Shown here: positions 1,690-60,766 of the stretch, one piece after another
How the letters are laid out: each line of letters opens with the position of its first letter
Numbering within the stretch: the first letter of the stretch is position 1
Origin: a virus
Lineage: Duplodnaviria; Heunggongvirae; Uroviricota; Caudoviricetes
Length of the DNA stretch: 64,000 bases
Virus record (IMG/VR): IMGVR_UViG_3300031133_000383
Span: 58,635 to 122,634 of that record
Strand: one strand, 5' to 3'
Position numbers and translations under genes: made by a program
The notes under the pieces: model-generated
What the model was told of the DNA's origin: nothing
Databases searched by the model: none
The model's input: the letters and a program-made list of their open reading frames with translations, nothing else

Positions 1690-2292
1690 ATGAATAAAGA
1701 AGATTATGAATATTTAATGTCTGAACGTTATTCCATATTGCTTCACGCTGATATAGAGCGTTTTGGAATGGTTTCATTTATAACTACTCATTTCCACATT
1801 CACTACATATATGAAAGCTTGACATTTATCATTACAGATGATGGCACCAATAAAATTATTAAAAAATTTAACAAAAATAATCTTGACTATAAATCCAGTC
1901 TTTATGGTTTGCCTGCTCAAATCACCTATAATAACGCTGGATTACCCATGTTAATACTGTACAGGCATACTGATACTAAAGGAATTCCCAATAAAACAGT
2001 TAAAAATTATGCCGTTAACAATGTGTTACTGGATACCAAATATTATTGGTATGATGAAAATGAAGTTTTATTAAATGAACGATTAACCACTTTCTTTAAT
2101 CATTTTTTTATGGAAAAAATGTTTGATATTACCATAGATTATGATAATAGCCGTATCATGACTATCATCATTCAGGCCATTTTGGAGGGTAAATCAGCAG
2201 AGATTGTTGAAGCTTTTAAAGTACTTAATATTAAAAGCCTCGATCATCTTGACCAAGCAGATTCTGTATTGGTTGAAATGCTTCAGTTATAA
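1690..2292 (+). CDS. hypothetical protein, shared C-terminal motif family (...VLVEMLQL)
   Basis: ORF with AGGTG RBS and own promoter; C-terminal motif. Confidence 0.8.
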   Translation: MNKEDYEYLMSERYSILLHADIERFGMVSFITTHFHIHYIYESLTFIITDDGTNKIIKKFNKNNLDYKSSLYGLPAQITYNNAGLPMLILYRHTDTKGIPNKTVKNYAVNNVLLDTKYYWYDENEVLLNERLTTFFNHFFMEKMFDITIDYDNSRIMTIIIQAILEGKSAEIVEAFKVLNIKSLDHLDQADSVLVEMLQL

Positions 2293-2296
2293 AACA

Positions 2297-2710
2297 TTAA
2301 TTTTTTAAACATTTAGCAATATAGTCTTGTTGCTCTTGACTCATCTGGCTAGTGTTTAATGTTTTTATGAATGTTTTCAATTCATCAGCTTCTTTTTTAT
2401 ATTTTCTAATGACTTGTTCAGTATGTACAGATTGAGATTGTTTGATACTTTCTTTAATGGCATTAACATCCTCTCGTGTTAGTACTGTTAAGTCATTTTC
2501 AGGATAAATAATAAATTTTTTACTATCCCAATCAAATCCAAAATGTGCTGATTGTACTTCTTCTAATTCCTTCAAATCTACTGATTTTACATTTGTTACG
2601 GGGGTTCCCCCAAGACTGCCGGGTCTAAATATCGCAATACCTACACGAATTTTTTTATCTATAGGTAACTTATAATTATTAATGATCTCAATCAATTCGC
2701 CAATTTCCAT
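2297..2710 (-). CDS. hypothetical protein (GGTP...GFDWD motif)
   Basis: 137 aa ORF with GGGGGA RBS. Confidence 0.8.
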   Translation of the reverse strand: MEIGELIEIINNYKLPIDKKIRVGIAIFRPGSLGGTPVTNVKSVDLKELEEVQSAHFGFDWDSKKFIIYPENDLTVLTREDVNAIKESIKQSQSVHTEQVIRKYKKEADELKTFIKTLNTSQMSQEQQDYIAKCLKN

Positions 2711-2871
2711 TCTGTCCCCCTTATTTTGGACATTATTATATCAAAAAATTACATTATTGGCAAGCATCAATATCTCTTAAAAATCAATATTAACTTTTTT
2801 TATTGAATTGACTTATACTATTTAATTGATATATTATAATAACTTAACGGATAGTAATATGGGGAAACAAT

Positions 2872-3054
2872 ATGCCAAAAATTATACTAAAACCACAGGA
2901 AAAAATTGAGTTTGCTCTTCGTCGTTTTAAAAAAGCTTGTGATAAAGCTAAGATTATTCAAGATTATAGAAAACATGAATTTTATATTCCAGAAACTGAA
3001 CTCAAAGTGCTTAGAAAAAAAGAAGCCATAAAAAGAGAAAAGAAAAAACGATAA
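2872..3054 (+). CDS. rpsU: 30S ribosomal protein bS21
   Basis: MPKI...E.ALRRFKK.C.K...DYRKHEFY..E...RKK.A.KR matches the bS21 pattern. Confidence 0.92.
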   Translation: MPKIILKPQEKIEFALRRFKKACDKAKIIQDYRKHEFYIPETELKVLRKKEAIKREKKKR

Positions 3055-3128
3055 TAACATGTCTTTTCAATAATATTCAGTTATCATAACAGTGTCTTCT
3101 TAATACTCTATATAACTGGTTATAATAG

Positions 3129-3160
3129 TTGACATCCTCCCCCACCTGAAGGGAGATGTC
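3129..3160. other. GC-rich hairpin resembling an IS200/IS605-family end remnant
   Basis: ttGACATCcTCCC-ccacctgaa-GGGAGATGTC; no transposase nearby. Confidence 0.3.
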
Positions 3161-3360
3161 TTCTTTCACCAAAAGCATTATAAAATTTATAACCCAAATG
3201 ACAATAACTATAAATACTTAATATAGTGTATTTATTTATAGTTAGCATAGGCCAAAATGATTTAAATTTACTTTTTGATAATTGATTTTTGGATGTTTTT
3301 CTGCTATAGTACAAAAACGATAGGCAATCTATCTAGTTCACTTAATATTTGGAGGAATTT

Positions 3361-3681: not shown

Positions 3682-3694
3682 AAGAAGAGTAAAC

Positions 3695-3717
3695 AAAGAC
3701 CAGCAAAGCTGGTCTTT
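3695..3717 (+). terminator. hairpin terminator (AAAGAC...GTCTTT type)
   Basis: aaagaccagc-aaa-gctggtcttt. Confidence 0.65.
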
Positions 3718-3736: not shown

Positions 3737-4393
3737 TTGAAACAAAGTAAACGAGATAGAATCAATTTCAGTTTGAATGAAATTCATAACGATGTAATGG
3801 AATTGTTCAAAATAGATCAAGATGTTCGAGAATGTTATATTGATATTCTGGATACTTTTGAATCTGATTATTCCTATTATGAAGATTATGCTTATCCTTA
3901 TTTCATGAAAGAAAATATAGCCATGGTTAATGATTTTAATCAGCAATATAAAATTACCAATCAAGTATTGGATAAGAATTATATTGAAGACCATAATAAT
4001 GCTTACTTTATGATAAATTTTGAGGATATACGTTCTGATTGTACACATCCTTTGGTTATTTTGTTACTAGAACATTACTCGGGTCTAGCTGATTGTCATT
4101 CCTTTAATATATTCTTGGCTTATCATCAGCCTAAATGGAATTATAGGACAGAAATAATATTAAAAGTTTTTATTAATGATCTCGACTGTAAGTGGCCTAG
4201 TCGCAATGTCAATGAATTGAATTATATCAATAATCAAGTCTATCCATCTTTTGTAGAAACGGGTTTCCATAAAGTTATCTATAATGACTTAAAATTGAGA
4301 CCTTATTTTTACAAGAGATTGGACATGAATGAAGACTATATTGTGACTCATTTTGATGACGTTAAATGGTTATTGGAAGCTATTGATTATTGA
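3737..4393 (+). CDS. hypothetical protein, shared C-terminal motif family (...WLLEAIDY)
   Basis: 218 aa ORF; C-terminal motif. Confidence 0.75.
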   Translation: MKQSKRDRINFSLNEIHNDVMELFKIDQDVRECYIDILDTFESDYSYYEDYAYPYFMKENIAMVNDFNQQYKITNQVLDKNYIEDHNNAYFMINFEDIRSDCTHPLVILLLEHYSGLADCHSFNIFLAYHQPKWNYRTEIILKVFINDLDCKWPSRNVNELNYINNQVYPSFVETGFHKVIYNDLKLRPYFYKRLDMNEDYIVTHFDDVKWLLEAIDY

Positions 4394-4445
4394 GTTATTG
4401 ATTAAAATAGGGTATAATAGTGCTCTCTTAACAAGGAATACTAAC

Positions 4446-5618
4446 ATGATTGAATCAATGGTCAAAAATTTTATTCAACAACATCCTCGTAAAAAATACA
4501 TTATTGCATACAGTGGCGGTGTTGATAGTCAAGTACTGCTGCATGCCTTTGCAAAGGTTGTTCCTAATCAAGTAGTTGCCTTTCATATTAATCATGGTAT
4601 TTCTGAGCAAGCCGATGCTTGGACAGACTTTTGTTTTCTGAACGCTTGCCTTTTGGGCGTAAAATTTGAAGTCAAAAAGTTTTCACTTAAAGGAATCAGT
4701 AACCTTGAAGATGTTGCTCGACAAGCTCGTTATGGAGAATTTCTTAAAGTAATGAATAATGATACAGCATTGGTGACAGGCCATCATATGGATGATCAGG
4801 TAGAAACTTTTATGCTCAACTTGATGCGTGGAGCAGGTCTTGACGGGCTTGCTGCAATGCCAGAAAGTAAATCATTTGGTGAGGGGGTTCATCTACGTCC
4901 ATTTCTTGCTATCGGCAAACAGGATCTAACCGATTATGCGGTCAAAAACAATTTGAAATGGGTAGAAGATGAAAGTAATAAAGACAGCGTTTATGACCGA
5001 AACTTTATTCGTAATGAGATCATGCCATTGATCAAGACTCGATGGGAGAATGCAAGTTCTGCTGTATGTCAAAGTATTAATCACATTCAAAATGCAAAAA
5101 ACTATATCGATGAAAAAAATGATGTAATGGATATCAATAAAGACACCCTTTCTATTACTGAACTGTTGTCCTTCAATGCTTATGAACAGACACATATTGT
5201 CCGAAAATGGGTATCAAAAAAGTTGGGTAAATCAGCATCACAAAACATGTTGAACACTATTTTTAATGAGATTATTCCTGCACGAGAAGACGCGAAAATG
5301 AAATGGGAGCAAAAAAACTATTTTATCACTCGTTATGAAGATTCATTGTACTTTGTTAAAAAAGAAAAAAAATCATATGATATTGCAGCATTACTTAAAT
5401 CAGCTAATATTGATCTATCTGTTGATGATGTAACTGTCAATGAAAGAGTGAACGGGGCAGTCATTAAAATGGGCGAGCATCATAAAAAAGTTAAAAAACT
5501 ATTTAATGAAATGCATATTCCTACATGGGAACGTGAGAACATTCCTTTTATTTATCATGGTGATGTTTTGGTTTCAGTAGGTGGTATCATCAATAACACA
5601 GATTATATCAAGAAATAA
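4446..5618 (+). CDS. tilS: tRNA(Ile2) lysidine synthetase
   Basis: AYSGGVDS, HINHG, ARQARY, GHHMDDQVET, LRP, DESN, RNFIR, TilS_C (KKLF...IP.WER). Start moved to 4446 because TTGAGT-17-TATAAT (4390-4418) and an AAGGA RBS lie inside the track ORF. Confidence 0.93.
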   Translation: MIESMVKNFIQQHPRKKYIIAYSGGVDSQVLLHAFAKVVPNQVVAFHINHGISEQADAWTDFCFLNACLLGVKFEVKKFSLKGISNLEDVARQARYGEFLKVMNNDTALVTGHHMDDQVETFMLNLMRGAGLDGLAAMPESKSFGEGVHLRPFLAIGKQDLTDYAVKNNLKWVEDESNKDSVYDRNFIRNEIMPLIKTRWENASSAVCQSINHIQNAKNYIDEKNDVMDINKDTLSITELLSFNAYEQTHIVRKWVSKKLGKSASQNMLNTIFNEIIPAREDAKMKWEQKNYFITRYEDSLYFVKKEKKSYDIAALLKSANIDLSVDDVTVNERVNGAVIKMGEHHKKVKKLFNEMHIPTWERENIPFIYHGDVLVSVGGIINNTDYIKK

Positions 5619-10716: not shown

Positions 10717-11637
10717 ATGGACTTTTCAGCATTCTCATTTGCCAGTATTCGAATGTCAATCCTTTCTGGTGCTCATTCTGTTGATGATCATCACAAATTG
10801 AAATTGGAATTAAACCCACCTAACATTATTGATTCTCTAGGAGTAAATACTTTTTGCTTTTATATCAATAAGTCTTTTGGCATCTTGAAAAATGATTACA
10901 TGAAAATTGTAAAAGCACTCAAAAAGAAAAAATTAAATTTTGATGTCAATATGGATGCATTAAAAGAGCTACCCGAATTCCATATTATGAAATTTATTGG
11001 TGGTATAGAATTGATTGAATACTTCCAGAACATAAGTATGAACAATACAACAGGACGACCCCGAATCTCAGATAATCAATTATTACGAGAATGCACTATT
11101 TCTAAACTCTCTGCTTGTAAATCCTATTATGCACAGCATCAACCCAAAATTTTCTGTTTGGATATTGAAATTCAGACCAATAATGAAAAAGCATTTGAAC
11201 CTACTGAATTTGGATTTGTGTATCATGCAGACGGGCAGGATTTTTATGAGCATTATTTGATTGAAGAATTTTATCAGCTAAAGGTTGATAGTTCTTTACA
11301 GAAAAAATTTAAATTTGGTAAAACAAAACTTATTTCTTATGATGGATTTGTGAATATGATGTCTGATTATCTTGATAAATCTGATATGTTTCTAGCTCAT
11401 TCCGTTAATTCTGAAAATTACTATTTGAGTCGTACTGGTATTTCATTGCCTTATTGTGTTGATGCCGTAGTTGATACTCAGTTTTTATACAAAGACTATG
11501 ACAAAACGCATATAAAACCTGTTTCATTAATTGATATGTTAACTTATTTAAAGATTCCTTTTAAAGACCTTCATAATAGCGGTAACGATGCTGCCTATAC
11601 TTGGGCCGCTTTCAAAAAAATAATGGACCTTAACTAG
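10717..11637 (+). CDS. DEDDh 3'-5' exonuclease-domain protein (Gfd2/YDR514C-like C-terminus)
   Basis: CLDIE, FLAH, VDTQ, LHNSGNDA.YT motifs. Confidence 0.8.
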   Translation: MDFSAFSFASIRMSILSGAHSVDDHHKLKLELNPPNIIDSLGVNTFCFYINKSFGILKNDYMKIVKALKKKKLNFDVNMDALKELPEFHIMKFIGGIELIEYFQNISMNNTTGRPRISDNQLLRECTISKLSACKSYYAQHQPKIFCLDIEIQTNNEKAFEPTEFGFVYHADGQDFYEHYLIEEFYQLKVDSSLQKKFKFGKTKLISYDGFVNMMSDYLDKSDMFLAHSVNSENYYLSRTGISLPYCVDAVVDTQFLYKDYDKTHIKPVSLIDMLTYLKIPFKDLHNSGNDAAYTWAAFKKIMDLN

Positions 11638-13279
11638 GCCCATTTTTTTTAGTGTGTTTTTTACTTGCTTTTTCAAATTTCTTTCTATATTTTTCGACAT
11701 TTTCATAAATATTATAAGTTTCTTCTTTTGAAAACTTTCTCAGGTCATCCATTTTAACAGCTTGACCATATTCTTTTTTAAAACTTAAGCAATAATTCAA
11801 TATTTGATGTTGACTATCATTATCCTTATCAAAAAATAAAATATTCTGACCTTCATCCTCTATAAAATTTTGAAAATTATCGAATGCTTTTGTATTAATA
11901 ACAAGATCGTTATAAAGAATAATGCACTGGTTATCAATTACATATTCGGCTAGCTTTCTAAAACCTTCATTAATGATTTCGTCATTAAAGAATTCATGAT
12001 TGTAAGCATTTTTTAATTCTAGTGTTTTCAAGCCATAGTATTCATGCTCTTCAAAGACATAATGATAATTTACATCCAGTAAGTTTTCTCCTTTTAAAAT
12101 AATAGCTTTATTATGACTTAAATAACTTTCTTGATAAAATAACTCATTATTAATACTAAATTGATTCAGATTCATATTCACATAGTTGCTGACTAAACCA
12201 AATTTATGCAGTCCATTCACATAATCATTGTAACGATTATGAGCGGTATCGTAATTTGTTGAGAATACATCTGTCTCAAACGACATTGTATGTGTTTCTA
12301 TAGGTTTTAATAATACTTCTGGAAATTGTTCTTTTACCTCATCGATAAATTCTTTCATGGGGTATTTTGAAATCAATTCTTCTTTTGATTTCAACATTAT
12401 CAAATTTTCCAAGGTATCTAAAAATACTTCTCTAATATCATCGTAATAGAAATCAACAATTTTCATCATTTTTTCATAAGGTAAATGATTGGATATCACA
12501 ATACCCGTGACGGTATTGTTTTGAACATAATCTGTGTTTAAAATCCTCTTCATCTTTTTTTCTTCTATTTCAAAGAAACCTTCTAATCTTGTTAATAAAG
12601 TTGATCGATAATCAGCCATTACATCATCAAAATTTAATGGTAATAAACCCACTATTTGTTCATATCGATTAGTTTTATCAATAGAATGATAAGGCAGTGT
12701 ACGTTGCAGACATGAAATAAAATCACTGTACATTGATAAATCTGTAGGAGAGAGATCCTTTATTTGTTTATCACTATTTTCTAAATCATAAAGGTTAGCT
12801 AAAAATTCAAATTTTTCAGTATCAGGATGCAAATGTATAAGGCTATTTAATAAAGGTCCATTATTGTCATAATTGTATTTTTCGAAAAAGGTTTCTGTGT
12901 AGTTTTTATAAAATGATTGAAAATCAGGTGATGTATCAAATAATGTGTACACATCTTTCATAACATTTTTTTCATTTTCTGAATACACTTTATGTGACTT
13001 ATTCAAATTGTTACTTTCGATGATTGTTTCAAATTCTTCATTGTTATTATCATAGCGATAGTTGACTTTATTTCTTCTAGCAATAACAAATCCAAAATTA
13101 TTATCCTTTGTTCTTTTTAAATTGTTTTTACGATTAAAAGTGTCATTGTCATAATCATGAAATAATGGAAGCGAAAATAGTTCATTAAGAGCTAATATTT
13201 CAAAATTTTTATCTTGTATATTATGCTTTACTTTCAAATCTTTTATTATTTTTTCAATATCTGTTATATGTACTTTCAT
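11630..13279 (-). CDS. hypothetical protein with Lys-rich C-tail
   Basis: 549 aa ORF; ends KKHTKKNGPS. Confidence 0.85.
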   Translation of the reverse strand: MKVHITDIEKIIKDLKVKHNIQDKNFEILALNELFSLPLFHDYDNDTFNRKNNLKRTKDNNFGFVIARRNKVNYRYDNNNEEFETIIESNNLNKSHKVYSENEKNVMKDVYTLFDTSPDFQSFYKNYTETFFEKYNYDNNGPLLNSLIHLHPDTEKFEFLANLYDLENSDKQIKDLSPTDLSMYSDFISCLQRTLPYHSIDKTNRYEQIVGLLPLNFDDVMADYRSTLLTRLEGFFEIEEKKMKRILNTDYVQNNTVTGIVISNHLPYEKMMKIVDFYYDDIREVFLDTLENLIMLKSKEELISKYPMKEFIDEVKEQFPEVLLKPIETHTMSFETDVFSTNYDTAHNRYNDYVNGLHKFGLVSNYVNMNLNQFSINNELFYQESYLSHNKAIILKGENLLDVNYHYVFEEHEYYGLKTLELKNAYNHEFFNDEIINEGFRKLAEYVIDNQCIILYNDLVINTKAFDNFQNFIEDEGQNILFFDKDNDSQHQILNYCLSFKKEYGQAVKMDDLRKFSKEETYNIYENVEKYRKKFEKASKKHTKKNGPS

Positions 13280-15153: not shown

Positions 15154-15285
15154 TTATTTAATTTTGTTGGTTTCTTTTATTATATCATATATTTTATACT
15201 TTTCATTATTGTACAAAAAAAAACTATTATTGCTTCATTTTTATTGTTTTTATGCTATAATGATAAAAAACTAGGAGACACTTTC

Positions 15286-16809: not shown

Positions 16810-17027
16810 AATACACCTCTTGTTTCAACCGATTTTATCATTAAAATAAGAAAAATGCAATAAAATATAGACAAATATAGTTTTTATTATGTGTCATATT
16901 ATAATAATAAACATTCATGACCAAAATTCATCTATTTTCTAGACGTTGGCATTCCATCGAAGTTTTTAATAAATGATTGATATTTGAATACGTTTAGTGT
17001 ATATTTTTATCAATAATGGAGATATAT

Positions 17028-20137: not shown

Positions 20138-20207
20138 AGGCTTTTTATTTGTCCAAAATTGCAAAAATATTTTATTTATGATACAATCTCCAAACGGAGA
20201 AACCATC

Positions 20208-41540: not shown

Positions 41541-41570
41541 AAAAAAAAGACTTTTAAGAAGTCTTTTTTT
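41541..41570. terminator. bidirectional terminator
   Basis: aaaaaaagactt-ttaag-aagtcttttttt. Confidence 0.8.
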
Positions 41571-42243: not shown

Positions 42244-42252
42244 TTTTCTTCC

Positions 42253-42924: not shown

Positions 42925-42944
42925 TTTATACCTTACTTATATTT

Positions 42945-48119: not shown

Positions 48120-48851
48120 ATGTCTAGTTCTGAGAAAAGATTTATTTATCATTCAACTTCAAGTAAATTTTTTAACGATTATCAATATCGGAAGATGATT
48201 AAAAAACTAAAAATCAGGACAGAACCAGATGAAATTAGAAGCCTTGATCATAAATTACTAGATTTATTAGAGCAAAGCAAGCTTTTATTTACAAGATATG
48301 GTATTTATGAAATTTGTACATTTAGAGACTATGAACAGGTTGAATGTATTTCTTTGACTATCAAATACAAATCTTATTTTAGTTCTTATTGGGCAAATAT
48401 TATGACTCTGGAATATATGCCGAAATCGACTCCACCTTTTAAAAGTATTTATTCTGCTTATGATATATGGATTGACGTAGGGCATCTGTTTGATGACAAG
48501 TATGCTTATACAGGAAAGACAAAGTGTTCAATTGAACCTTTTCGAAATCTTTACTATCATAATCAGGATTATAATATTCAGTTAATTAATCATATCTTAT
48601 TCAATGCTTCTATCAGTGTAGATTCAGATGATAAGTTCACATGGACAATTTCTATGAAAATAAAGAAACATGGAAAGATGCACAGTATTTCTGGTATTGA
48701 ATATTCGTTTGAGGACTTGATAGATACATTAATGAATCGACCTCTCGAATTTGTTTATAAAATTTATTTTCCCAATAAAGAAGTAGATATTGAAATGTTT
48801 CGAAAAGATCCCAAAAATGCATTTAATCTTTTGTCCATGATTGAAATTTAA
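48120..48851 (+). CDS. hypothetical protein, shared C-terminal motif family (...NLLSMIEI)
   Basis: GAGGG RBS; C-terminal motif. Confidence 0.8.
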   Translation: MSSSEKRFIYHSTSSKFFNDYQYRKMIKKLKIRTEPDEIRSLDHKLLDLLEQSKLLFTRYGIYEICTFRDYEQVECISLTIKYKSYFSSYWANIMTLEYMPKSTPPFKSIYSAYDIWIDVGHLFDDKYAYTGKTKCSIEPFRNLYYHNQDYNIQLINHILFNASISVDSDDKFTWTISMKIKKHGKMHSISGIEYSFEDLIDTLMNRPLEFVYKIYFPNKEVDIEMFRKDPKNAFNLLSMIEI

Positions 48852-48862: not shown

Positions 48863-50050
48863 ATGCTTTTTGAATATACAAAATTAAAAAAAGAAGACTT
48901 TAAAGAATTCTTACAATCCAAAAATTTCAATACCATAGACATACCTATTGTTGGTGATCATGCTGCACAAAAAAAAGAATATACAATATCAGTACAATCT
49001 TCAATTGATAACTTAATAGATTTAGTTTTCCACCCATTGAAAAAAGATGATACCTACAATATTTATAATCATTTTAATTATTTAGATTCATTGATAGAAA
49101 CAGAGACTCCGTTTAAAGAAAGAAATCAAAATACCACCTTGTTTTTTATTTTTAAAAGCGATACAGTTAGTATTCTTATTAAAGATTTTTTTCATATATC
49201 ATTAAATGAAACGGATGATATAGATTTTTCACTGATGTCCGTTTGTTTTGATTTTAAAAAATCATCAAGCTTAGAGCAATTCCTATTAATTTTGGTACAA
49301 AAGACAAAGGAATATTTTAAAAATACTTACAATCTTGATTATACAGTTGACAATTTGGCTCACATACGAACGATAATTCATACGAAATACAATCTTAATG
49401 CTCCGCATTATAAATCATCAATCAATAAAAAATACAATCAAGGTATCATGGCTCAATATATGGACAAAAATTATGATAAAGTCATGATTTCGTCTATTAT
49501 TAATAGGGCTAAAACGCTAAGTTCTATGGTAAAAAAACCGGTGGTTGATTTGTCAATAAAAGCTCAACATCCTAATAATAGTTATGGCAATGAAAGACTT
49601 CTATTTCCGGTAGCTTTCATAAGGCATATCGAGCCACTTTTAAACCATATCTTTCTTAATGATTGGTCTAAAAAAACAATCCAATTGATTAATGCATTGA
49701 TTCTCTATCAATCTGCTATTAACGGATTGACAATAAATCATTTTTCTATAATTATGCCATCATTAGAAATTAATAAAAAGAGTCTTGAAAATTTTGAATT
49801 ATTTAAGATAGTTTCAGAATCTGAATTCTTTTTTTATAATGAACAAAATTTCAAAATAATATTTGGATTGAATATTAAAATTCAGGTGAAAAATGGTCCT
49901 AATATTATATATGATCATGATTTTGAAAATCTAGACCAAGCTTATATTCATTTTATTGATTATTTCAGCACAGTCATTATAAACCGCATACCTTCCACCA
50001 CTATTATTAATAATGATACTTTTAAAATATTAAAAATGATGAATATTTAA
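48863..50050 (+). CDS. hypothetical protein, shared C-terminal motif family (...KILKMMNI)
   Basis: AGGAG RBS; C-terminal motif. Confidence 0.85.
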   Translation: MLFEYTKLKKEDFKEFLQSKNFNTIDIPIVGDHAAQKKEYTISVQSSIDNLIDLVFHPLKKDDTYNIYNHFNYLDSLIETETPFKERNQNTTLFFIFKSDTVSILIKDFFHISLNETDDIDFSLMSVCFDFKKSSSLEQFLLILVQKTKEYFKNTYNLDYTVDNLAHIRTIIHTKYNLNAPHYKSSINKKYNQGIMAQYMDKNYDKVMISSIINRAKTLSSMVKKPVVDLSIKAQHPNNSYGNERLLFPVAFIRHIEPLLNHIFLNDWSKKTIQLINALILYQSAINGLTINHFSIIMPSLEINKKSLENFELFKIVSESEFFFYNEQNFKIIFGLNIKIQVKNGPNIIYDHDFENLDQAYIHFIDYFSTVIINRIPSTTIINNDTFKILKMMNI

Positions 50051-52657: not shown

Positions 52658-52785
52658 TTATCTATCCTCTACTTATTGAGTAATTGTATCATAATATACA
52701 TAAATGGATCAACTATTTTTATAATATATTTGCGTTGTATTTAGCTGTGATTTTTGATATACTACTATCACTAAGAGGGTCTTGT

Positions 52786-53484
52786 ATGCATCGTAGAACA
52801 ATCAACAAAATTTTGAGACAGTATCCGTCTTGTAAAAATCTTGATAAATCTATTTCCTTGTGGATGAAAGACGATGACTTGATTAAATCTTTTTTTAATA
52901 AAGATGCAGTACCTATCATGGCTTGTTGTTCATTAAATAGTATTTACTGTATGATGGAAGATAATTTTCCTTATTTTTATGATCATGGGGCTTGTCACGC
53001 TGTTTTAAATAAAGTTTCTTTTTTCTTTAATATCTATAAATCAGAACATCTACTACTTTGCGACCCTTACAATTCTATTGAAGAAATTAAAAAAGTTTTT
53101 AGTAAATTTATCAAGCATGAAACTTATTTGAATATATTAAATGATATGTTAATCAATCTTAATTTTCAACAAAGTGCTTATTTTAGTTATAGGTTTGATA
53201 TAGAAACAGAAGTAAATTTAATAGAATACCTAATAGGTAGTGGTTCTTATAGTTTTTGTATCAAATTAAGATTTACCGATCAATCTGTTATTGTTGATTT
53301 TATTACAACTGTTGATGGATGTCATGCAGAAGCTAATTTTTTTGGAAATTTTGATAGTTTTTCTGCTGTTTGTGATAGAGGATTTAGATTGAGTGGTCTT
53401 GATTTTATGACATTTGAAAATTTATGTGATATCAATACTGATTTTGTTTCAATGGCTAAAATTCAAAAAATATATAATTATTAA
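52786..53484 (+). CDS. hypothetical protein, shared C-terminal motif family (...KIQKIYNY)
   Basis: GAGGG RBS and TGaTATACT support start MHRRT. Confidence 0.75.
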   Translation: MHRRTINKILRQYPSCKNLDKSISLWMKDDDLIKSFFNKDAVPIMACCSLNSIYCMMEDNFPYFYDHGACHAVLNKVSFFFNIYKSEHLLLCDPYNSIEEIKKVFSKFIKHETYLNILNDMLINLNFQQSAYFSYRFDIETEVNLIEYLIGSGSYSFCIKLRFTDQSVIVDFITTVDGCHAEANFFGNFDSFSAVCDRGFRLSGLDFMTFENLCDINTDFVSMAKIQKIYNY

Positions 53485-53537
53485 GCAATATTTTTGTACA
53501 AAGTTTTATTATACTATTAAATATGTGGAGTGTATTT

Positions 53538-54332
53538 ATGTCTAGTTGTGAGATGCCTATTATTGAAGATCCCTATTTTGGAGTCATTCAGCCTATCAAA
53601 TATGAAAACTCTTTGATTACTCAACGAGCCAGCCATTTTTTTGAATGTCCTGTTGACATCATCTATACTAATCATATAGCTTATGAGGGAGACGATGTGG
53701 CTTTAAAAAAAACGGCACTACTTGATGAAGGATTTTTTAATATCAATGGTTTGCTGGTTCCCTTTGTTTTTGAATCGCTTGTTCATGCACAAAAACCTAT
53801 AGTCAAGCTTGATATTAATCTATATCTTACTGTTATTTACGGTCATGATCAAAATAAATACCAAATAAATAATAATATCAAAACTGTATTTCTAGAAAAA
53901 ACAGATGAGTATTTGAACAAAATTTTAGGTGCATTGCCTCTTTATTTATCAAATGAATTAAAAAATGTACTAGAGTATTTATATTTTTATCCTTATGTTG
54001 ATTCTATTAATGGGAAAAGCTTGAATATTGGATATGACATCATTACAAAATCTTCCTATTTCTTTATCACGCATTATCAGAAAGAAAGCACCTGTTACAA
54101 TAATAGGATGCCGTTTAGTTATGATGGTAGAAATTTTTCAATGTTGATGAATGGCTATAAGAACATTATAGTAAATTCAGAAAATTTAGACAAGGCGTGG
54201 GGTCTTTTGTTTTCTTCCATCTTGAATCATAAGCTATATGAAGAATCCCTTATAGGTCCATTTACTGATATGACAACTGTTCTTCAACATGTTGAGAAAA
54301 TATCATCTATTGTTGAAATGGTACAATATTAA
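53538..54332 (+). CDS. hypothetical protein, shared C-terminal motif family (...SIVEMVQY)
   Basis: GGAG RBS supports start MSSCE. Confidence 0.8.
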   Translation: MSSCEMPIIEDPYFGVIQPIKYENSLITQRASHFFECPVDIIYTNHIAYEGDDVALKKTALLDEGFFNINGLLVPFVFESLVHAQKPIVKLDINLYLTVIYGHDQNKYQINNNIKTVFLEKTDEYLNKILGALPLYLSNELKNVLEYLYFYPYVDSINGKSLNIGYDIITKSSYFFITHYQKESTCYNNRMPFSYDGRNFSMLMNGYKNIIVNSENLDKAWGLLFSSILNHKLYEESLIGPFTDMTTVLQHVEKISSIVEMVQY

Positions 54333-54405: not shown

Positions 54406-55920
54406 TTAATGACCTCCACCTTCTATGTGATGTGTGGGTCGCTTTGCCAACAATACAAAAGGTATCAATACCAGCATGATAATACCACTCAACAACATGA
54501 TATCATTAAGTCCCATCACTGCAGCCTGACCGTTGATGATGTTATTTATATATGACATTTGAGTAATATTGTCTTGCATAGGCAACATTTTTATATAATT
54601 TTCATAATTTGGATTGGCTTGATTAATGCTGGCAGCTAGGTATTCATGATGTATTGCCATTCTATGATCCCAATACGCAATAACCAAAGATGTGCCAAAG
54701 CTATTTCCCATATTTCTCATAAAACTAGAAATACCAGAAGCACTTGCCATATCTTTAGGTGCTATATTAGAAAATGTTATACTGGTTAATGGTATGAAAA
54801 AACAGGCAAGTCCGATACCTAGAAATAAACGATTGAATGCAATATGTCCTGCTGTCACTTCATTATTCATTGTTGCTCCCCACCATGATACGATAAAGAA
54901 CCAAATAAATCCAAAAACAACAATCTTTCTAGGATCAACCTTAGATAATGCCGCACCTAATATTGGAGCTAAGAAGATAACAAAAACACTGGTTGTGGAT
55001 GTTGCCAGTCCACTATTGAATGCAGTATATCCCATGTAGTTTTGTAACCATTGAGGAAATACAACAACTGTCGAAAAGAAAGCGGTAGATCCAATACATA
55101 AAACCATCACTCCAATCAAAAAATTTCTATTTAAAAATAATCTAACATCAACAATGGGATCTTTAGCATAATATTCCCATATAATTAAACTGGACATAAA
55201 GATAAATGATATAATACCTAATGTAACAATATAGTTATCACTAAACCAGTCAAGTTCGTTACCTTTATCCAGCAAGAGTTGAAGTGATCCTACACCAACG
55301 GCCAAAAATATTAAACCCATATAATCCATTGGCGATTTTATTTTGACTTCATTTGTTCTTTGAACTTTAAATATTTTATAAACAATATAAGAAGAAATGA
55401 TACCAAAAGGAATATTGATATAAAAACTCCATCTCCAATGCCAGTTATCAGTGATCCATCCACCTAAAATAGGACCTGCCACAGGAGCGATAACAATCGT
55501 CATTGACCAAATACCCATTGCCAATCCTTTCTTGTTGGCTGGATAAATACTCATTAATAGTGTTTGTGATAAAGGTATCATACAAGCACCTACAACCCCT
55601 TGCAGTATTCTGGCAAATAGTAAAATTTCAAAACTTGGACTTATTCCACATAATACACTGGCAATCGTAAATAATATTGTACCCCATATATAGAGGTTGA
55701 CTTGTCCAAATCTTTTACTCAACCAGCCTGTTAAAGGTAACAAGATAGCTTCTGAAACCGCATATGATGTGATTACCCATGTACCTTGTGTTGATGACAC
55801 CCCAAAGTCACCTGCTATATGTGATAATGAAACATTGACAATAGTTGAATCCAATATATTCATAAAAGATCCAATTGATAAAGCAAAGGTTGCTAGTAAT
55901 AACGCTATTGGTATTTGCAT
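54406..55920 (-). CDS. emrB: DHA2 MFS multidrug efflux permease
   Basis: FMNILDSTIVNVSL.HIAG, GTWVITSY, GPILGGWITD, WRW.FYINIP, ends GGGH. Confidence 0.95.
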   Translation of the reverse strand: MQIPIALLLATFALSIGSFMNILDSTIVNVSLSHIAGDFGVSSTQGTWVITSYAVSEAILLPLTGWLSKRFGQVNLYIWGTILFTIASVLCGISPSFEILLFARILQGVVGACMIPLSQTLLMSIYPANKKGLAMGIWSMTIVIAPVAGPILGGWITDNWHWRWSFYINIPFGIISSYIVYKIFKVQRTNEVKIKSPMDYMGLIFLAVGVGSLQLLLDKGNELDWFSDNYIVTLGIISFIFMSSLIIWEYYAKDPIVDVRLFLNRNFLIGVMVLCIGSTAFFSTVVVFPQWLQNYMGYTAFNSGLATSTTSVFVIFLAPILGAALSKVDPRKIVVFGFIWFFIVSWWGATMNNEVTAGHIAFNRLFLGIGLACFFIPLTSITFSNIAPKDMASASGISSFMRNMGNSFGTSLVIAYWDHRMAIHHEYLAASINQANPNYENYIKMLPMQDNITQMSYINNIINGQAAVMGLNDIMLLSGIIMLVLIPFVLLAKRPTHHIEGGGH

Positions 55921-55929
55921 TATACACCT

Positions 55930-57087
55930 TTATTGACTTAATTTAGCAATAGTGGTTTTTACAATAGTATCAACATCCTTGTCAATTATTGTATAATTCG
56001 CATCAAATATATTGGTAGATTCAGGGACTAAAGTTTTAACTGATTTTAATATTTGCTCAGTATGTGTATTAATATCCACAACTACAGAACTACCGATAGG
56101 TAAATACCCATGTTCTTTAATGCTATCTTTGTTTATTTCTATTTTTACAGGCACTCGTTGAACAACTTTAATCCAGTTGCCTGTTGCATTTTGAGCGGGT
56201 AACAATGAAAATGCACTACCACTACCGGCTGAAACACCTTTGACAATACCTTCATAATGCTGTTTATTCACATCACTGACAATTTCAACTTCTTGACCTA
56301 TTTTAAGATTTTTTAATTGATTTTCTTTCAAGTTGGCATCGATCCATGCATTATTTAAATCAATAATGGTAAATAGATTTTGATTCTCATTGATCTTTTG
56401 ACCAAGAGAGACCGCTCTTTTGGCAATAGTACCATCAAACGTCGCATAAATATTGGTTCTTGCCAGATTAATAGCCGCTTTTTGATAATTAAGAATACTT
56501 TTAGCAACATCAGGATGTTGTTTAATGCTTTCAGAGGCTAATTGAACTTTATCATTTTTAAAATTATTTTGAGCAATAGCGTATTGAATTTTACTTTGAT
56601 TATAATTATTTTTAACAACATCATAATTTTCCTGACTAATCAATCCCTTTTTGAATAATAAAGTGTCTCTTTTGTAATCAACCTCATTTTTTTGAAAATC
56701 TACTTTTTTCGCATTGACTGTTTCAGAAGATACGCTGACATTATTATTTAAAGAATAATATTTTCGAATAGACTGTTCTAATTCAACTTTAGCCGACTCC
56801 AGTGTCAGTAAGTAATCAGTATCATCAATTTTAGCAATCAAATCGCCTCTTTTAACTGTCTGTGTATCATCTACTAATACTTTGACAATATTTCCTGATA
56901 ATTGTGATGTAACCATATTTTGGTGACTATTAACATAAGCGTCTTCGGTTTCTTCATGCCATTTAAAGTTGGTATTCCATAAGTAAGCATAAAAACCACC
57001 AATAATAGCTACCACCAATAATAATATAATAATTTTTTTAATGGCTTTACTACTGTTTCCTTTTACTTTTTCTTCCTGTTGTTGCAT
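55930..57087 (-). CDS. emrA: EmrA membrane fusion protein
   Basis: EETEDAYV, GSAFSLLPAQNATGNWIKVVQRVPVKI. Confidence 0.95.
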   Translation of the reverse strand: MQQQEEKVKGNSSKAIKKIIILLLVVAIIGGFYAYLWNTNFKWHEETEDAYVNSHQNMVTSQLSGNIVKVLVDDTQTVKRGDLIAKIDDTDYLLTLESAKVELEQSIRKYYSLNNNVSVSSETVNAKKVDFQKNEVDYKRDTLLFKKGLISQENYDVVKNNYNQSKIQYAIAQNNFKNDKVQLASESIKQHPDVAKSILNYQKAAINLARTNIYATFDGTIAKRAVSLGQKINENQNLFTIIDLNNAWIDANLKENQLKNLKIGQEVEIVSDVNKQHYEGIVKGVSAGSGSAFSLLPAQNATGNWIKVVQRVPVKIEINKDSIKEHGYLPIGSSVVVDINTHTEQILKSVKTLVPESTNIFDANYTIIDKDVDTIVKTTIAKLSQ

Positions 57088-57088
57088 T

Positions 57089-58498
57089 TCAAGCTCCTGC
57101 TTTTTGGTTGATTATATTAATTCCACCTAATGCATTAATTAGGTCAATTTGTTGATTGAATCTACTTAATAATTGCTTATTATTATTTCGTTCTTCACTC
57201 AGTAGTTGATCACGTTCTTGTACAAATTCATAACGTGAGATAGTTCCATACTTGTATCTGGTGCTCATGTTATTAAATATTGTTTTTTTATTTTCATATT
57301 TTGAAAAACTGTTTTCAAGCGAATTCTTTTCTTTTCTTAACTTGTAAACATTGTCATTAATATCTTTTAATGCAGTCGAAATCGTTTTATTATAATTTTC
57401 AATAAATGTATTTAAATCAAATCCTGCCAATCTATAATTAGATTTAATACGTCCAGAGTCAAATATGGGTAGTTTTAATGTAGGCGAAATTGTTGCAAAC
57501 AATGATGACTTAGATAGTAATAAATTCGGAGTTATTGACTCAAAACCTGCAGTCCCTGTGATGGTGATATTAGGATAGAAATCGGCTTTCAATGCTTCAA
57601 GTTGTTCTTCTTGTGCATCAATATTGTATAAATAATATTTAACGTCTGGACGTTCAGTAATGACTTCCGCCGTATAATATTCTGGCAACTTTAATTCTGT
57701 TTTATATAAATCAACAGTATTAACAGCTAATATTTTGTTTATTTTATCATTGTTATTACCCAATAACATCAATGAATTTTTAGTAAGTTGCAATGATGTC
57801 GTATTGTCAACAATCAAAGTATTCATATCTTTGATATTATTTTTAAGTTTTAAAACTTCATCATCAATGCTTGTACCAATGGATACTTTATATTGTTCCA
57901 ATTCCAAGAGTTCTTGATAAATTTCTTTTTGTTCGATTAATAAACGAGATTGATTATTGTAAAAAGTGAAATCTGCATACAATTTAACAACCTGATTTGA
58001 AATATTTAACTCAGACCATTGTTTATTCAGCTTTTCTGCTGCTTGTAAGCTCATGTACTGATTGCCAAAATGTTGTATTTTTTTGAATAAATCGACATCA
58101 TAATTTGCATTTAATGACAAACTATCATTATCTATTATACGGTTTGAATATTCAGCAGGATTGAAACTGTTACCACTCAATCTCTGTTTGTTTGCTGTAG
58201 CTTCAAGATCTATACCAATTTTTTTATTGGCATTGTTTAATTGATATTGTTCCTGTATTTTAGCAATTTTAATATCAAGCAGTTTTAAATCTTTGTTATT
58301 ATCTAAAATAACGATCATGAGTTGATTAAGTTGCTTGTTATTTAATTCAGTCCACCACTTTTCTCTTTTTATTGTATAACTTTGATTGTTGAGTGATGTT
58401 ATTGTTTGACCTTCTATTGCGGGTGATTCAATATTGGGAATAGCTACACATCCTGTGATTACCATACTGATAATTAATGGTAATGTTTTTTTAATCAT
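57089..58498 (-). CDS. outer-membrane efflux lipoprotein (NodT/TolC family)
   Basis: Lipobox ITGC, WW, RPDV, A.FYP.I, LPIFDSGR, L..ALGG. Confidence 0.9.
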   Translation of the reverse strand: MIKKTLPLIISMVITGCVAIPNIESPAIEGQTITSLNNQSYTIKREKWWTELNNKQLNQLMIVILDNNKDLKLLDIKIAKIQEQYQLNNANKKIGIDLEATANKQRLSGNSFNPAEYSNRIIDNDSLSLNANYDVDLFKKIQHFGNQYMSLQAAEKLNKQWSELNISNQVVKLYADFTFYNNQSRLLIEQKEIYQELLELEQYKVSIGTSIDDEVLKLKNNIKDMNTLIVDNTTSLQLTKNSLMLLGNNNDKINKILAVNTVDLYKTELKLPEYYTAEVITERPDVKYYLYNIDAQEEQLEALKADFYPNITITGTAGFESITPNLLLSKSSLFATISPTLKLPIFDSGRIKSNYRLAGFDLNTFIENYNKTISTALKDINDNVYKLRKEKNSLENSFSKYENKKTIFNNMSTRYKYGTISRYEFVQERDQLLSEERNNNKQLLSRFNQQIDLINALGGINIINQKAGA

Positions 58499-58988
58499 AT
58501 TTTTCCTCCATATTATCTAATGCTTTGCCTAATTCTTTGATAACAGATTCGACATTGCAATTTTCCCATATATTTTTTAATATTTCATCGTGAGCACCCA
58601 TATTATCCATAATGAATTTTTTTCCCTCTTGTGTAATACTGATGAATATTTTTCTACGATCCTTTTTATCATGTTCTCTTTCCAAATACCCCCTTTGAAT
58701 CAATTCATCCACTACACGAGTCATTGTAGGTTTTGGCTGTCTTAACATTGAGGCCAATTCTGATGGTAATATTTTACTATCCTCTGTATCATATGTAACC
58801 ATTAATACTCCCCATGAAGTACAGGTAAGACCACCACATTCTTGCATTCTTTTATCCATAATGCGTTCAAATTGTTTTGTGGTTTTAAACAATAACCGAG
58901 TTAATAATACTTCATTTAGTGAAAAGTTTTCACTGGTGTCTTTTAGCTTAGCTAATCTATTTTGAATTTCTTTTATCTTATTGGACAT
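58491..58988 (-). CDS. emrR: MarR-family repressor (EmrR/MprA-like)
   Basis: PSELA......TMTRVVDEL...G.LER....DRR...I.IT..G. Confidence 0.85.
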   Translation of the reverse strand: MSNKIKEIQNRLAKLKDTSENFSLNEVLLTRLLFKTTKQFERIMDKRMQECGGLTCTSWGVLMVTYDTEDSKILPSELASMLRQPKPTMTRVVDELIQRGYLEREHDKKDRRKIFISITQEGKKFIMDNMGAHDEILKNIWENCNVESVIKELGKALDNMEEKYD

Positions 58989-59007
58989 AACGACCTCTTT
59001 ATAATAT

Positions 59008-59025
59008 TAGTTCCATATGAAACTA
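59008..59025. promoter_or_regulatory. putative MarR operator
   Basis: Near-perfect palindrome TAGTTcCATATGaAACTA abutting the -10 (TAAAAT) of the emr promoter. Confidence 0.6.
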
Positions 59026-59167
59026 TTTTACACGAAATTATTTTATAATCAATAATTAGCTGGCAAATTATTTTATTTTCTTGTATTTTTACTGTTTTTA
59101 CAATATAAAATATTTACTATTTTTTAATAGTGTGGTATGATTCGGATACATTTTGGAGATTCAAACT

Positions 59168-59989
59168 ATGATTTCTAGTCTTATTGGCAATCGAAAACTT
59201 CAGTCAAGCGATCAATTTTTCAATGATGAATTTATTAAACAATCCATGTCTCTTATGTTGCCAAAATTCAATCAGGTTGATAAAAAAGATATTTATATCC
59301 TTCAATACATCTCTTTTCGTGGAAAAAGAAGTTGTGATTTTATTTTCAAGTATAAAGATATTTATATTCCTTTAAGCATCAATTTTAATGAATTTTTTGA
59401 ATTGAAGTATTCAGTACGTATTTGTTTTGATAAGGGTGCTTTAAGTAGTAATTTTTTTGAAGTTGATAAAATAGATAATTATAATATTGATCAATTCAAC
59501 GATTTTTTTGAAAATAGTCAATGGCCCAACGTCTGGACTCCTTTTCAAAAGATGCTGGCTGATTTCTATCATAGTAACGGTCAATCTATTATTCATAAAC
59601 AAGTTGTTTCACTTAAATACAATCAAATGAATGAGGCGGATAAAATACAACTTCCATTGCCTCATGTTTTATTTGATAGTTACTCTCGCTATGAAGCTAA
59701 CGGTAATAGTGTTTTTATGAACATTCATGGAGAAAGTTTGGATGACGATCATTATGTTACATTAAAGACAACACAAGGTGAAACATCTATTAAAATTCCT
59801 ACTGATTATATGCTTGAAAAAAGCTATTCTATGGACCCTTTATCTATTTTTAAGTCGTGTGTACTTAAACTACATACTATAATAGATGATAACGTAATGG
59901 CTGATTTCAATAATTACTTTGATGCAGTCAAATATTATCATACTCATCAGGATTTTTTTAAAAAATTGGGCGAAATGATTAAAATTTGA
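59168..59989 (+). CDS. hypothetical protein, shared C-terminal motif family (...KLGEMIKI)
   Basis: GGAG RBS supports start MISSL. Confidence 0.8.
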   Translation: MISSLIGNRKLQSSDQFFNDEFIKQSMSLMLPKFNQVDKKDIYILQYISFRGKRSCDFIFKYKDIYIPLSINFNEFFELKYSVRICFDKGALSSNFFEVDKIDNYNIDQFNDFFENSQWPNVWTPFQKMLADFYHSNGQSIIHKQVVSLKYNQMNEADKIQLPLPHVLFDSYSRYEANGNSVFMNIHGESLDDDHYVTLKTTQGETSIKIPTDYMLEKSYSMDPLSIFKSCVLKLHTIIDDNVMADFNNYFDAVKYYHTHQDFFKKLGEMIKI

Positions 59990-59998
59990 AATTATTAT

Positions 59999-60766
59999 AT
60001 GAACAGTCATTTTAAAAATTTTTTTGAATTCTATTTTGATTATCCTTTTGAACAATTGGAATTCTTTCTGATGAATCAGATCGACATTGATATTGCCAAA
60101 ACTTATCAATTGGATGTTAATGATATTGAAACTTTTTTCATCCATAAAAAAAATTCAAAAAATTCTACAGTTAATTATTATGGGTTTTTCAGATTGAAAC
60201 ACTCTGACTTTTATATTCCTGTTGATATAATTTGTATTAAAGATTATTATGATCCCATAATTGATCTGAAATTTAATTTAACTACAAGAAACTCTATATT
60301 TGATTTCAAATGTATACCTTTAAAATATGATAAGACATTTGACTATATTAACGAATTAATGAAAGCATTGCCAGAATCTATTTCAGAATTTGTTTCAGGC
60401 ATTGAAAAAGATTTTACGTTTTTGAATACTTCTTTTATGGATAATTTTTCTCTTTATTTTGATTTAAAATCAAGTTTTCTACAAATTAAATCTCGTTCAA
60501 ATCTACATTATAACGAATTAACCATTGCTGGTTTTTACGATGATCAAAAGAGACGGCTTGATTACAGTCTTAATGTAAAAGGAGATAATGAATTATTAAC
60601 CATGTTCTTGTCTTGTATAAATATAGATGAATTCAATTGTCATCATTTATTGTCTCAAAGCTTTAACAATTATGATTCGCTGATGACCGTGGATAGTACA
60701 AATTTTATCAAGATGAGAAATCAGTTGATTCAGTATAGAAAAATGAATTTAATCTACACATATTGA
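59999..60766 (+). CDS. hypothetical protein, shared C-terminal motif family (...KMNLIYTY); probable paralog of upstream gene
   Basis: DFYIPV vs DIYIPL similarity; weaker motif match. Confidence 0.75.
   Translation: MNSHFKNFFEFYFDYPFEQLEFFLMNQIDIDIAKTYQLDVNDIETFFIHKKNSKNSTVNYYGFFRLKHSDFYIPVDIICIKDYYDPIIDLKFNLTTRNSIFDFKCIPLKYDKTFDYINELMKALPESISEFVSGIEKDFTFLNTSFMDNFSLYFDLKSSFLQIKSRSNLHYNELTIAGFYDDQKRRLDYSLNVKGDNELLTMFLSCINIDEFNCHHLLSQSFNNYDSLMTVDSTNFIKMRNQLIQYRKMNLIYTY

Follow-up and report, generated by a model that had tools for sequence, protein, structure and literature searches.

Stop-anchored tails in the window and across the contig

The 64,000-nucleotide stretch of DNA analysed here (the window) corresponds to bases 58,635-122,634 of one contig, 437,043 bp long and with a GC content of 30.9%, which is catalogued in IMG/VR as a linear virus record (IMGVR_UViG_3300031133_000383) with a CheckV completeness estimate of 98%. 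Fourteen of its open reading frames (ORFs) encode mostly dissimilar proteins that end in variants of one short motif, built around a Met residue at the fourth position from the chain end (-4, the last residue being -1). These tail-bearing proteins, or carriers, had been picked out in an earlier note made from the sequence alone, and all 14 C-termini quoted there are present in translated ORFs of the window. Its five tandem pairs and its placement of members on both strands, two of them on the minus strand, likewise agree with the ORF map; the positions it used are the low coordinate of each ORF, which is the start for plus-strand genes and the stop for the two minus-strand genes. An additional edge fragment at position 239, ending ILDIFKQ, is not counted as a gene here, since its frame, open for ~60 codons from the previous stop and ~31 from the first Met, lies among stop-rich frames. 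Met stands at -4 in 10 of the 14 window ORFs, with Ala in those at 3737 and 42253, Ile in those at 52786 and 59999, and Leu in that at 20963.

Tails were scored, in bits, with a leave-one-out, 15-residue, stop-anchored position-specific scoring matrix (PSSM). The first carrier (1690-2292, plus strand; 200 amino acids (aa), ending SVLVEMLQL) has Met at -4 and Leu at -7, with no Pfam match above cut-off and no PHROG match. Its PSSM score is low, as is that of the carrier at 59153-59989 (plus; TTG at 59153, ATG at 59168; KKLGEMIKI), the core of which matches; both scores are low only because of the pseudocount penalty on unseen residues. The Ala variant at 3737-4393 (plus; TTG at 3737, first ATG at 3797; WLLEAIDY, 7.6 bits) is also without Pfam or PHROG matches. 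The carrier at 17016-17651 (plus; 211 aa, KLFEMYIQ, 11.0 bits) has HRDDDLPA-type repeats in its body and one paralog elsewhere in the contig; its similarity to MORN_2 (PF07661; E 0.058, 14.1 bits) falls under the cut-off of 29.6. The gene at 20178-20906 (plus; 242 aa, LNLYQMLNI, 6.9 bits) opens a tandem pair and is followed at 20963-21649 (plus; 228 aa, LTVYHLHKV) by a weak variant with Leu at -4 and a marginal score of 4.3 bits. A further carrier lies at 33173-33886 (plus; 237 aa, NLLKMTII, 9.8 bits). Both minus-strand carriers belong to an apparent operon (41569-45406) in which an M3 oligopeptidase gene (43490-45406) overlaps by one base, at its stop, the start of the first carrier (42945-43490; 181 aa, LMTVKMYHE, 15.7 bits). 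The second carrier downstream of the peptidase gene, an Ala variant (42253-42924; 223 aa, LEILKAYLY, 7.5 bits), is followed by an ORF for a probable metallophosphatase (41569-42243), an assignment made from sequence; the non-carrier set described below, which includes this ORF, gave three matches to Pfam Metallophos. The genes at 48120-48851 (plus; 243 aa, NLLSMIEI, 14.7 bits) and 48863-50050 (plus; 395 aa, FKILKMMNI, 16.6 bits) stand in tandem. The remaining carriers are an Ile variant at 52786-53484 (plus; frame opening with TTG at 52684, ATG at 52786; AKIQKIYNY, 8.7 bits), the gene at 53523-54332 (plus; 269 aa, SSIVEMVQY, 9.5 bits) and the weakest variant of all, at 59999-60766 (plus; 255 aa, RKMNLIYTY, Ile at -4), with a marginal score of 3.0 bits.

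The bodies of these 14 proteins give no mutual match with E <0.1 in pairwise BLAST. Database searches are similarly unproductive: the carrier at 59999 finds itself alone among 5.8 billion clusters, that at 20178 itself alone among 1.84 billion representatives, and that at 17016 no homolog outside its own genome in collections of this scale. The ESM Atlas model of the 59999 protein is too poor in quality for use.

The tail is a property of the whole replicon, and it is real and position-locked. Among 520 non-overlapping ORFs of >=80 aa called on the entire contig, Met occupies -4 in 102, compared with 8-16 at each of the other positions from -1 to -15 and a background Met frequency of 2.6%. The pattern [LIVFM]xxMxx[LIVFMYC] stands at the exact C-terminus of 69 ORFs, where its internal rate predicts 1.7, and displacement of the same pattern by 1, 2, 3, 4 or 5 residues from the end yields 4, 3, 2, 1 and 3 ORFs, respectively. 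Scores of at least 6 bits are reached by 81 C-termini, where internal windows lead to an expectation of 0.3 and shuffled tails to one of 0.8. As an external control, 142 kb drawn from three further huge phages (GC 33-50%) gave 139 ORFs, and not one of these carries Met at -4. Enrichment of a stop-anchored motif, as first claimed, thus withstands the PSSM scan and the shuffled-tail and other-phage controls, which reject compositional artefact as its source. The original count of 14 was an underestimate: the contig encodes ~90-110 carriers, about a fifth of its proteins, and they are present in every 20-kb bin. Two intergenic stop-to-stop frames of ~41 codons (contig 164115-164240 and 424229-424357, both plus) also end in tails, ...SEHFELLKMIQI and ...KKTNLYKMIKI, and may be what is left of disrupted carriers, or else very small proteins that consist of the tail alone.

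Anatomy of the tail and the level of its constraint

The profile, domain and family analyses that follow rest on 101 carriers, the domain content of which was compared with that of 127 size-matched non-carriers. The tail profile of the carriers runs L/F/I at -13, D/E/N at -11, L/I/F at -9, L/I/V at -7 (91/101), L/I/V at -6, Glu (40) or Lys (25) at -5, Met at -4 (91/101), I/L/Y at -3 and I/Y at -1, giving the consensus [ST]-x-[DE]-[DE]-hydrophobic-x-[LIV]-[LIV]-[EK]-M-[ILY]-x-[IY]-COOH. The last residue is hydrophobic (I/Y/L/V/F) in 82 of the 101 and the residue at -3 in 79. Pro and Gly are nearly missing from -14 to -1 and slightly elevated from -15 to -18, residues of the S/T/D/N cap type and acidic residues are concentrated between -15 and -11, and the mean net charge is -1. 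Hydrophobic residues fall at -13, -9, -7, -6, -4, -3 and -1, leaving a polar stripe at -8, -5 and -2. These features support a capped helix ~14 residues long, on which the hydrophobic face is broad and the polar stripe narrow. An amphipathic helix had been proposed to precede the motif, and the scarcity of Pro and Gly, the hydrophobic periodicity, the cap and the terminal helix of both AlphaFold models discussed below bear out its presence at or ahead of it.

Several lines of evidence locate the constraint in the protein. Across the 101 carriers, the first and second codon positions are informative and the third, the ATG codon excepted, carries next to no information, and no conservation is found downstream of the stop codons; the constraint therefore acts on protein. 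Silent third positions and unconserved post-stop sequence exclude a DNA or RNA motif, such as a promoter, terminator or RNA element lying over gene ends. One family that has relatives in other metagenomes, here called F1, extends this conclusion beyond the contig. In 31 F1 genes from at least five genomes, Leu at -13 is encoded by TTA, TTG, CTA and CTG, Leu at -7 by four codons including CTT, TTA and TTG, and Val at -6 by all four of its codons, while Met at -4 is invariant; residues held constant through such synonymous variation point to selection on the protein sequence of the tail. At an overall identity of 35-45%, the final 15 residues come 11th in conservation among 289 windows, and one truncated F1 paralog, missing the stretch just before its end, keeps ...DMINY. 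An account in which the tails are an artefact of AT-rich composition, of nucleic acid signals or of mis-called ORFs would have to accommodate the codon pattern, the preservation of residues across synonymous change, 81 observed tails where shuffled or internal windows predict fewer than one and the lack of any in other AT-rich huge phages; nothing was found in its favour, and it can be given practically no credence.

The metagenomic homologs of F1 form 40 clusters, at 33-50% identity, and there are no relatives in IMG/VR, INPHARED phages or GTDB species genomes. In the loci fetched, F1 genes stand in tandem, 5-8 copies to an array, with every copy ending ...ELKEYFxLVEM[VIL]K[IV], and neighbouring non-F1 genes are tailed too. 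Three independently assembled contigs that bear such loci measure 1,843,594, 1,851,360 and 1,859,102 bp (among them Ga0308423_1259934, 1.85 Mb, and Ga0308158_10000001, 1.86 Mb), and others measure 604 kb and 520 kb. The occurrence of F1 relatives on 1.84-1.86 Mb contigs indicates that the 437-kb record is probably a fragment of something much larger. It may derive from a phage-like element that far exceeds in size the largest phage genome published, of 841 kb (preprint 10.1101/2025.01.14.633092); the 1.84-1.86 Mb contigs may, however, be chimeric or concatemeric.

Taken together, these properties suggest a model in which the last ~14 residues would form a capped helix held constant on ~100 fast-evolving, domain-less and mostly soluble proteins. 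A common partner would bind the hydrophobic face of this helix and sense the chain end, and the variable bodies would be either what is delivered or what does the recognising. Because the tail is fixed across dozens of families while adjacent helices vary, the constraint on it should be external and shared. The near-absolute register to the stop codon in turn argues for recognition of the chain end, and a partner sensing that end would explain the lock. We infer that a partner, or reader, for the tail exists, and the general proposition that the tail is a docking or address tag of some kind, with one common partner, is favoured here with confidence evenly divided for and against.

Bodies, families and predicted structures of the carriers

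Whether the bodies are truly unrelated bears directly on this docking model. The carriers range from 99 to 408 aa in length, with a median of 242 aa, and differ in composition from other proteins, with Phe, Tyr and Cys at 1.42-, 1.26- and 1.27-fold, Gly and Ala at 0.66- and 0.56-fold, further enrichment of His, Ile and Asn and depletion of Trp. About 10% of carriers, compared with 19% of other proteins, contain a hydrophobic segment of sufficient length to form a membrane helix. A single carrier of the 101 has a Pfam match (E<=0.001), a 147-aa dCMP deaminase the tail of which is probably a chance match, and PHROGs yield essentially no matches, with marginal ones only. By comparison, the 127 size-matched non-carriers match 74 Pfam families, including NAPRTase, TyrRS, adenylate kinase, RNA ligase, Thg1, NAD kinase, S49 peptidase and R2K ATP-grasp. 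The observation that no recognisable enzyme ends in the tail therefore holds beyond the window.

After removal of the last 25 residues, 84 of the 101 bodies are singletons in BLASTP and 77 remain so after five jackhmmer rounds; the groups that do form, of 6, 6, 4, 3, 2, 2 and 2 members, are consistently tagged. HHalign among these seven families returns probabilities that are all <7%, and iterated jackhmmer on the last 80 aa joins 18 carriers at most. With BLASTP, both jackhmmer searches and HHalign all failing to connect the set, the full-length homology that would make it a single family by sequence is not found, and the bodies still look mostly unrelated, as first described.

These results bear on a rival explanation in which the carriers constitute one ancient paralog superfamily, massively expanded and diverged beyond recognition, with the helix, as the best preserved structural part of a common fold, serving as a core or dimerisation element that has to stop where the fold stops and has no separate reader. 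Shared size and composition bias, the lack of known domains, uniform tag status within families and frequent tandem arrangement (30 adjacent carrier pairs, relative to 19.6 expected) are all as such a superfamily would predict. Predicted structures add to both sides. The AlphaFold model of F1, built from a 44-sequence alignment (pLDDT 88.5, pTM 0.85), is a two-lobed alpha+beta protein that runs from a helix (residues 8-18) through four strands, two helices, about seven strands, a long helix (253-276) and a short helix to the tail helix (288-302), the pLDDT of which, 76 falling to 61, is below that of the body. The model of a second family, F2 (six paralogs; pLDDT 61), opens with N-terminal helices, continues through a beta meander of six strands and closes in a C-terminal helical bundle, of which the tail helix is the last element. 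Both thus proceed from N-terminal helix through beta strands to C-terminal helices, and the F2 tail helix is modelled inside its bundle at high pLDDT, features that favour common descent. On the other hand, the two bodies differ in the number and arrangement of strands and in their weak fold matches, leaving the terminal helix as what they have in common. The best match of F1 is the C-terminal 'double wing' of T4 MotA (Z 5.6, 86 aligned residues, rmsd 3.5) and that of F2 is DUF3836 (Z 5.1), both within background; fold searches with the two models (Foldseek against PDB and BFVD, VIA-align wide and ESM Atlas) return nothing above background, and the best E in a profile search of the PDB is 0.36.

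A structural helix should, moreover, co-vary with the packing partners of each family, yet Met is retained at -4 in nine-tenths of carriers, and the stop register (69 ORFs in register, 1-4 at any offset) is tighter than is usual at domain ends. No cross-family signal emerges in profile-profile comparison or over the last 80 residues. The single-family explanation consequently finds no support, although, for proteins that evolve this fast, the lack of known domains among carriers, the uniform tag status of families and the common helix-strand-helix order of the models sustain it as an alternative of rather low probability. It would be compatible with docking if an expanded family had kept a constant docking helix, by analogy with the ankyrin-PRANC proteins of poxviruses.

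The broad hydrophobic face, spanning a, d, e and g positions, also raises the prospect that the tail helices bind one another, assembling carriers into mixed oligomers, a larger lattice or a condensate. In both models the tail helix follows another helix, an arrangement reminiscent of hairpins that pair into four-helix bundles, and carriers often occur in tandem pairs. However, 14 residues are short for a stable coiled coil, and mutual binding leaves the anchoring to the chain end unexplained; it is accordingly considered improbable.

Regulatory sequences provide little distinction between carriers and other genes. Extended -10 promoter sites are equally common upstream of both (27% and 25%), and TTGACA-type sites are depleted upstream of carriers (2% versus 10%), which hints that few carriers are immediate-early genes. 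A search for a carrier-specific promoter class found none, and the upstream k-mer enrichment observed is probably at least partly confounded by the tails of neighbouring carriers.

Candidate readers, related systems and the surrounding replicon

Chain-end signals, exemplified by the peroxisomal signal PTS1, the cargo peptides of encapsulins and ssrA, belong to the small number of general protein-addressing routes in cells. PTS1, a -SKL-COOH tripeptide read by the TPR domain of Pex5 together with the free carboxylate, resembles the tail in being a stop-anchored signal on dissimilar proteins and is the best model for the register lock; it differs in being a tripeptide on well-known eukaryotic enzymes, whereas the tail is a helix of ~14 residues on orphans of a bacterial element. 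The hubs proposed earlier for a constant docking helix on variable proteins (protease, packaging, import and secretion machines) are all putative. Negative results reported in this section cover the 437-kb contig, itself probably a fragment of a much larger genome.

In one tentative variant of the docking model, the tail loads cargo into a particle or another compartment built by the element. Encapsulin cargo peptides, the tail of the HK97-type maturation protease and the C-terminal helices of scaffolding proteins dock cargo bodies to the inner face of an HK97-fold shell, and encapsulin cargo-loading peptides and HK97-type capsid-targeting tails are, like the tail described here, short C-terminal peptides on unrelated proteins. 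The encapsulin peptide, however, has a Gly/Ser/Leu-rich (GSL-type) core after a flexible linker, whereas the present tail is nearly devoid of Gly and Pro and has a hydrophobic-hydrophobic-[EK]-M core; encapsulin systems have a handful of cargoes rather than ~100 carriers in strict chain-end register, and no match to the encapsulin shell family (Linocin_M18, PF04454) is found. The T-even capsid targeting sequence is an N-terminal peptide of ~10 residues that the prohead protease removes after (L/I)-x-E, rather than a C-terminal element. L/I/V-x-E does occur at -7 to -5 of carriers, but Glu occupies -5 in less than half of them and Lys in a quarter, and the T4 capsid gene Gp23 is not found in the contig. 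A parallel for particle loading comes from giant phage heads, which contain ~50 proteins including families of ejection-protein paralogs (PMC7411985). The head of SPN3US packs >40 MDa of ejection proteins, which are ejected into the host, and the prohead protease is reported to cleave such proteins of SPN3US and the phiKZ group as the head matures (PMC7411985, PMC10052503). Ejection and inner-body paralog families likewise account for a large part of the genes of these phages and comprise often tandem, domain-less proteins (PMC7411985, PMC10052503); the element shared among the carriers differs in being an uncleaved-looking C-terminal helix, head genes are not found in the contig and there is no sequence relationship.

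In a second variant, given comparably little weight, the carriers would act as adaptors for, or be substrates of, a hub to which the tail tethers them, be it a protease, an unfoldase or a chaperone. SspB, an adaptor for variable cargo with a constant C-terminal ClpX-binding (XB) tail, embodies the logic of the original proposal, and the ssrA tag is similarly a C-terminal peptide read by a protease or unfoldase hub. Their endings, LAA-COOH for ssrA and LRVVK-COOH for SspB, differ from the EM-hydrophobic-x-hydrophobic-COOH of the present tail, which is helical and acidic. These comparisons also inform the rival explanation that the tail is a C-terminal degron, conferring rapid turnover by a host or element protease and hence a short, timed life. 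Tags of the ssrA type are read as stop-anchored hydrophobic endings, and the hydrophobic-x-hydrophobic-COOH ending of the carriers fits that description. Peptidases of the S49 and M3 families, which in E. coli form the pair that degrades freed signal peptides, are both encoded in the contig, the former at 237242-238132 within a carrier-rich block and the latter in the operon described above. The juxtaposition of the M3 gene with carriers is not significant alone because a fifth of genes are carriers, chance by itself placing about a third of genes beside one, and the substrates of M3 oligopeptidases are short free peptides as opposed to folded proteins. The present tail, a capped helix in which acidic residues are conserved, is furthermore unlike the unstructured, small-residue tail of ssrA-type signals, and no Clp-type ATPase (AAA_2) is encoded in the contig, although a host enzyme could serve. 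A degron is on balance an unlikely identity for the tail.

Export signals offer another precedent, since type I protease and lipase substrates have an extreme C-terminal motif that must be terminal. A type I-like signal (acidic then hydrophobic residues at the extreme C-terminus) or a type IV-like transfer signal might therefore be considered, and the window encodes a TolC-like OEP and a HlyD-family protein. These belong, however, to a complete-looking MarR / OEP / HlyD-family / MFS operon with overlapping gene ends (54406-58988, minus), an MFS-driven pump with a MarR regulator, of the drug-efflux type. The contig lacks matches to ABC_tran and to VirB4 (PF03135, the sole type IV component tried), and the carriers are without RTX or other Pfam repeats and enriched in Cys, such that secretion or transfer is the least probable of the functional readings.

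Other kinds of reader, for example an enzyme that modifies C-termini, make up a third variant of the docking model, one that seems improbable. The tail has the hydrophobic-x-hydrophobic-COOH form of a class II PDZ ligand in locked register, and the one PDZ model tried (PDZ_2, PF13180) has no match in the contig. R2K-clade ATP-grasp genes adjoin genes of the ADP-ribosylglycohydrolase family, with Pfam R2K_2, R2K_3 and ADP_ribosyl_GH matches among non-carriers. Two paralogs lie at contig 152768-153619 and 279419-280249 (both plus), the second 32% identical to a DUF4343 gene (R2K.2 ATP-grasp family) of phage XacN1. R2K ATP-grasp enzymes are predicted to be protein-directed peptide ligases of phage-host conflict (PMC4431377). 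By analogy with RimK and tubulin-tyrosine ligase, they could conceivably read or modify protein ends; together with the M3 overlap, these genes are leads and no more.

The comparison with C-terminal PRANC and F-box adaptors of poxviruses, drawn in the earlier note, survives as an analogy of logic: a large, fast-evolving set of viral paralogs joins variable bodies to a constant C-terminal adaptor element. The PRANC domain is, however, a Pfam-recognised unit of ~40-50 residues that works with a eukaryotic SCF ligase, and among Pfam families neither PRANC nor F-box is detected in the 14 window proteins (E<=0.1) or the 101 carriers (E<=0.001).

Chain-end anchoring, enrichment, protein-level selection and bodies that cannot be related to one another thus speak for a constant docking helix on variable proteins, and several results weigh on the other side. 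No reader of the kinds named is found: the contig has no match to Clp-type AAA_2, PDZ_2, ABC_tran, VirB4 or encapsulin, nor to the head and packaging families Terminase_6N, Terminase_6C, TerL_ATPase, Gp23, Phage_capsid (HK97) and Phage_sheath_1. The terminal helix of the F2 model is packed within its bundle (pLDDT 78-93 for the helix, 73-93 for the bundle) and so may not be free to dock. Setting aside the probable chance match of the deaminase, the tag never occurs on a protein with a recognisable domain, and families carry it on an all-or-none basis, the pattern expected from common descent, unlike that of portable signals such as PTS1. The carriers may thus be one anciently expanded, hyper-divergent class instead of unrelated proteins that each acquired a tag. 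Finally, if the full genome is ~1.85 Mb, carriers could number several hundred, which would strain the idea that they are virion cargo.

A second class of tail bears on how far an addressing function might extend. About 31-45 ORFs contig-wide end in Lys-rich sequences, often K-x-K-P(-S), such as ...KNGPS, ...KFKP, ...TIKPS and ...KIKPS; those in the window are at 11630-13279 (minus), 15142-16128 (plus), 18261-19247 (minus) and 19370-20137 (plus). The two classes do not mix: at least four Lys or Arg among the last 10 residues are found in none of the carriers of the Met -4 tail and in 45 other proteins. Proteins with Lys-rich tails include some that have recognisable domains, for instance T5orf172 in the window and RNase_T among the relatives. 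A speculative and doubtful extension holds that a giant phage-like clade uses a proteome-wide 'postcode', with an undescribed receptor routing an orphan arsenal to particle, compartment or processing machine and Lys-rich tails marking a second destination. In effect, a bacterial virus or mobile element would then encode protein sorting of an organelle-like kind, and we know of no short C-terminal signal that governs a fifth of a viral or mobile-element proteome. The tag is a handle on ~100 'dark' proteins at once: identification of its reader would give all of them a common fate and say what the giant element does with so many orphan genes, and fusion of the tag to a reporter could serve as an experimental tool to follow location and binding.

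The replicon can be described as a phage-like giant element, its nature left open. Its translation is bacterial, with Shine-Dalgarno motifs before 52-61% of genes, compared with 5-7% in a control window, and the window DNA has no relatives among phages in INPHARED or plasmids in PLSDB. A full-length DnaK (contig 182807-184708, plus) is 73% identical to its best match in the phage collection, which is recorded under the name Pseudomonas phage Y6; its identity to the DnaK genes of further huge uncultured phages is 52-54%. Two Xanthomonas jumbo phages, XacN1 and Xoo-sp13, encode homologs, at 45% identity, of a 778-aa protein of the contig, and a 42-kb stretch of XacN1 has five genes in common with the contig, which encodes LigA in addition to the two peptidases. 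Three TnpB paralogs are present. At the contig end (436-437 kb), comparison with a locus from another sample (L033) shows the last gene followed by TnpB (IS605 OrfB) and then by genes found at 323-330 kb of the contig, a discrepancy that reflects repeat-mediated rearrangement or assembly ambiguity. Within the window, a HAMP-MCP chemoreceptor gene lies at 26792-28450 (plus) and a gene for the lysidine synthetase TilS at 4353-5618 (plus). The contig carries 26 tRNA genes, of which five have the anticodon CAT (at 80379, 335136, 376028, 385467 and 388897), some of them possibly tRNA-Ile2. Another, at 375947, has the amber-reading anticodon CTA; TAG is the rarest stop codon, ending 57 of the 520 ORFs.

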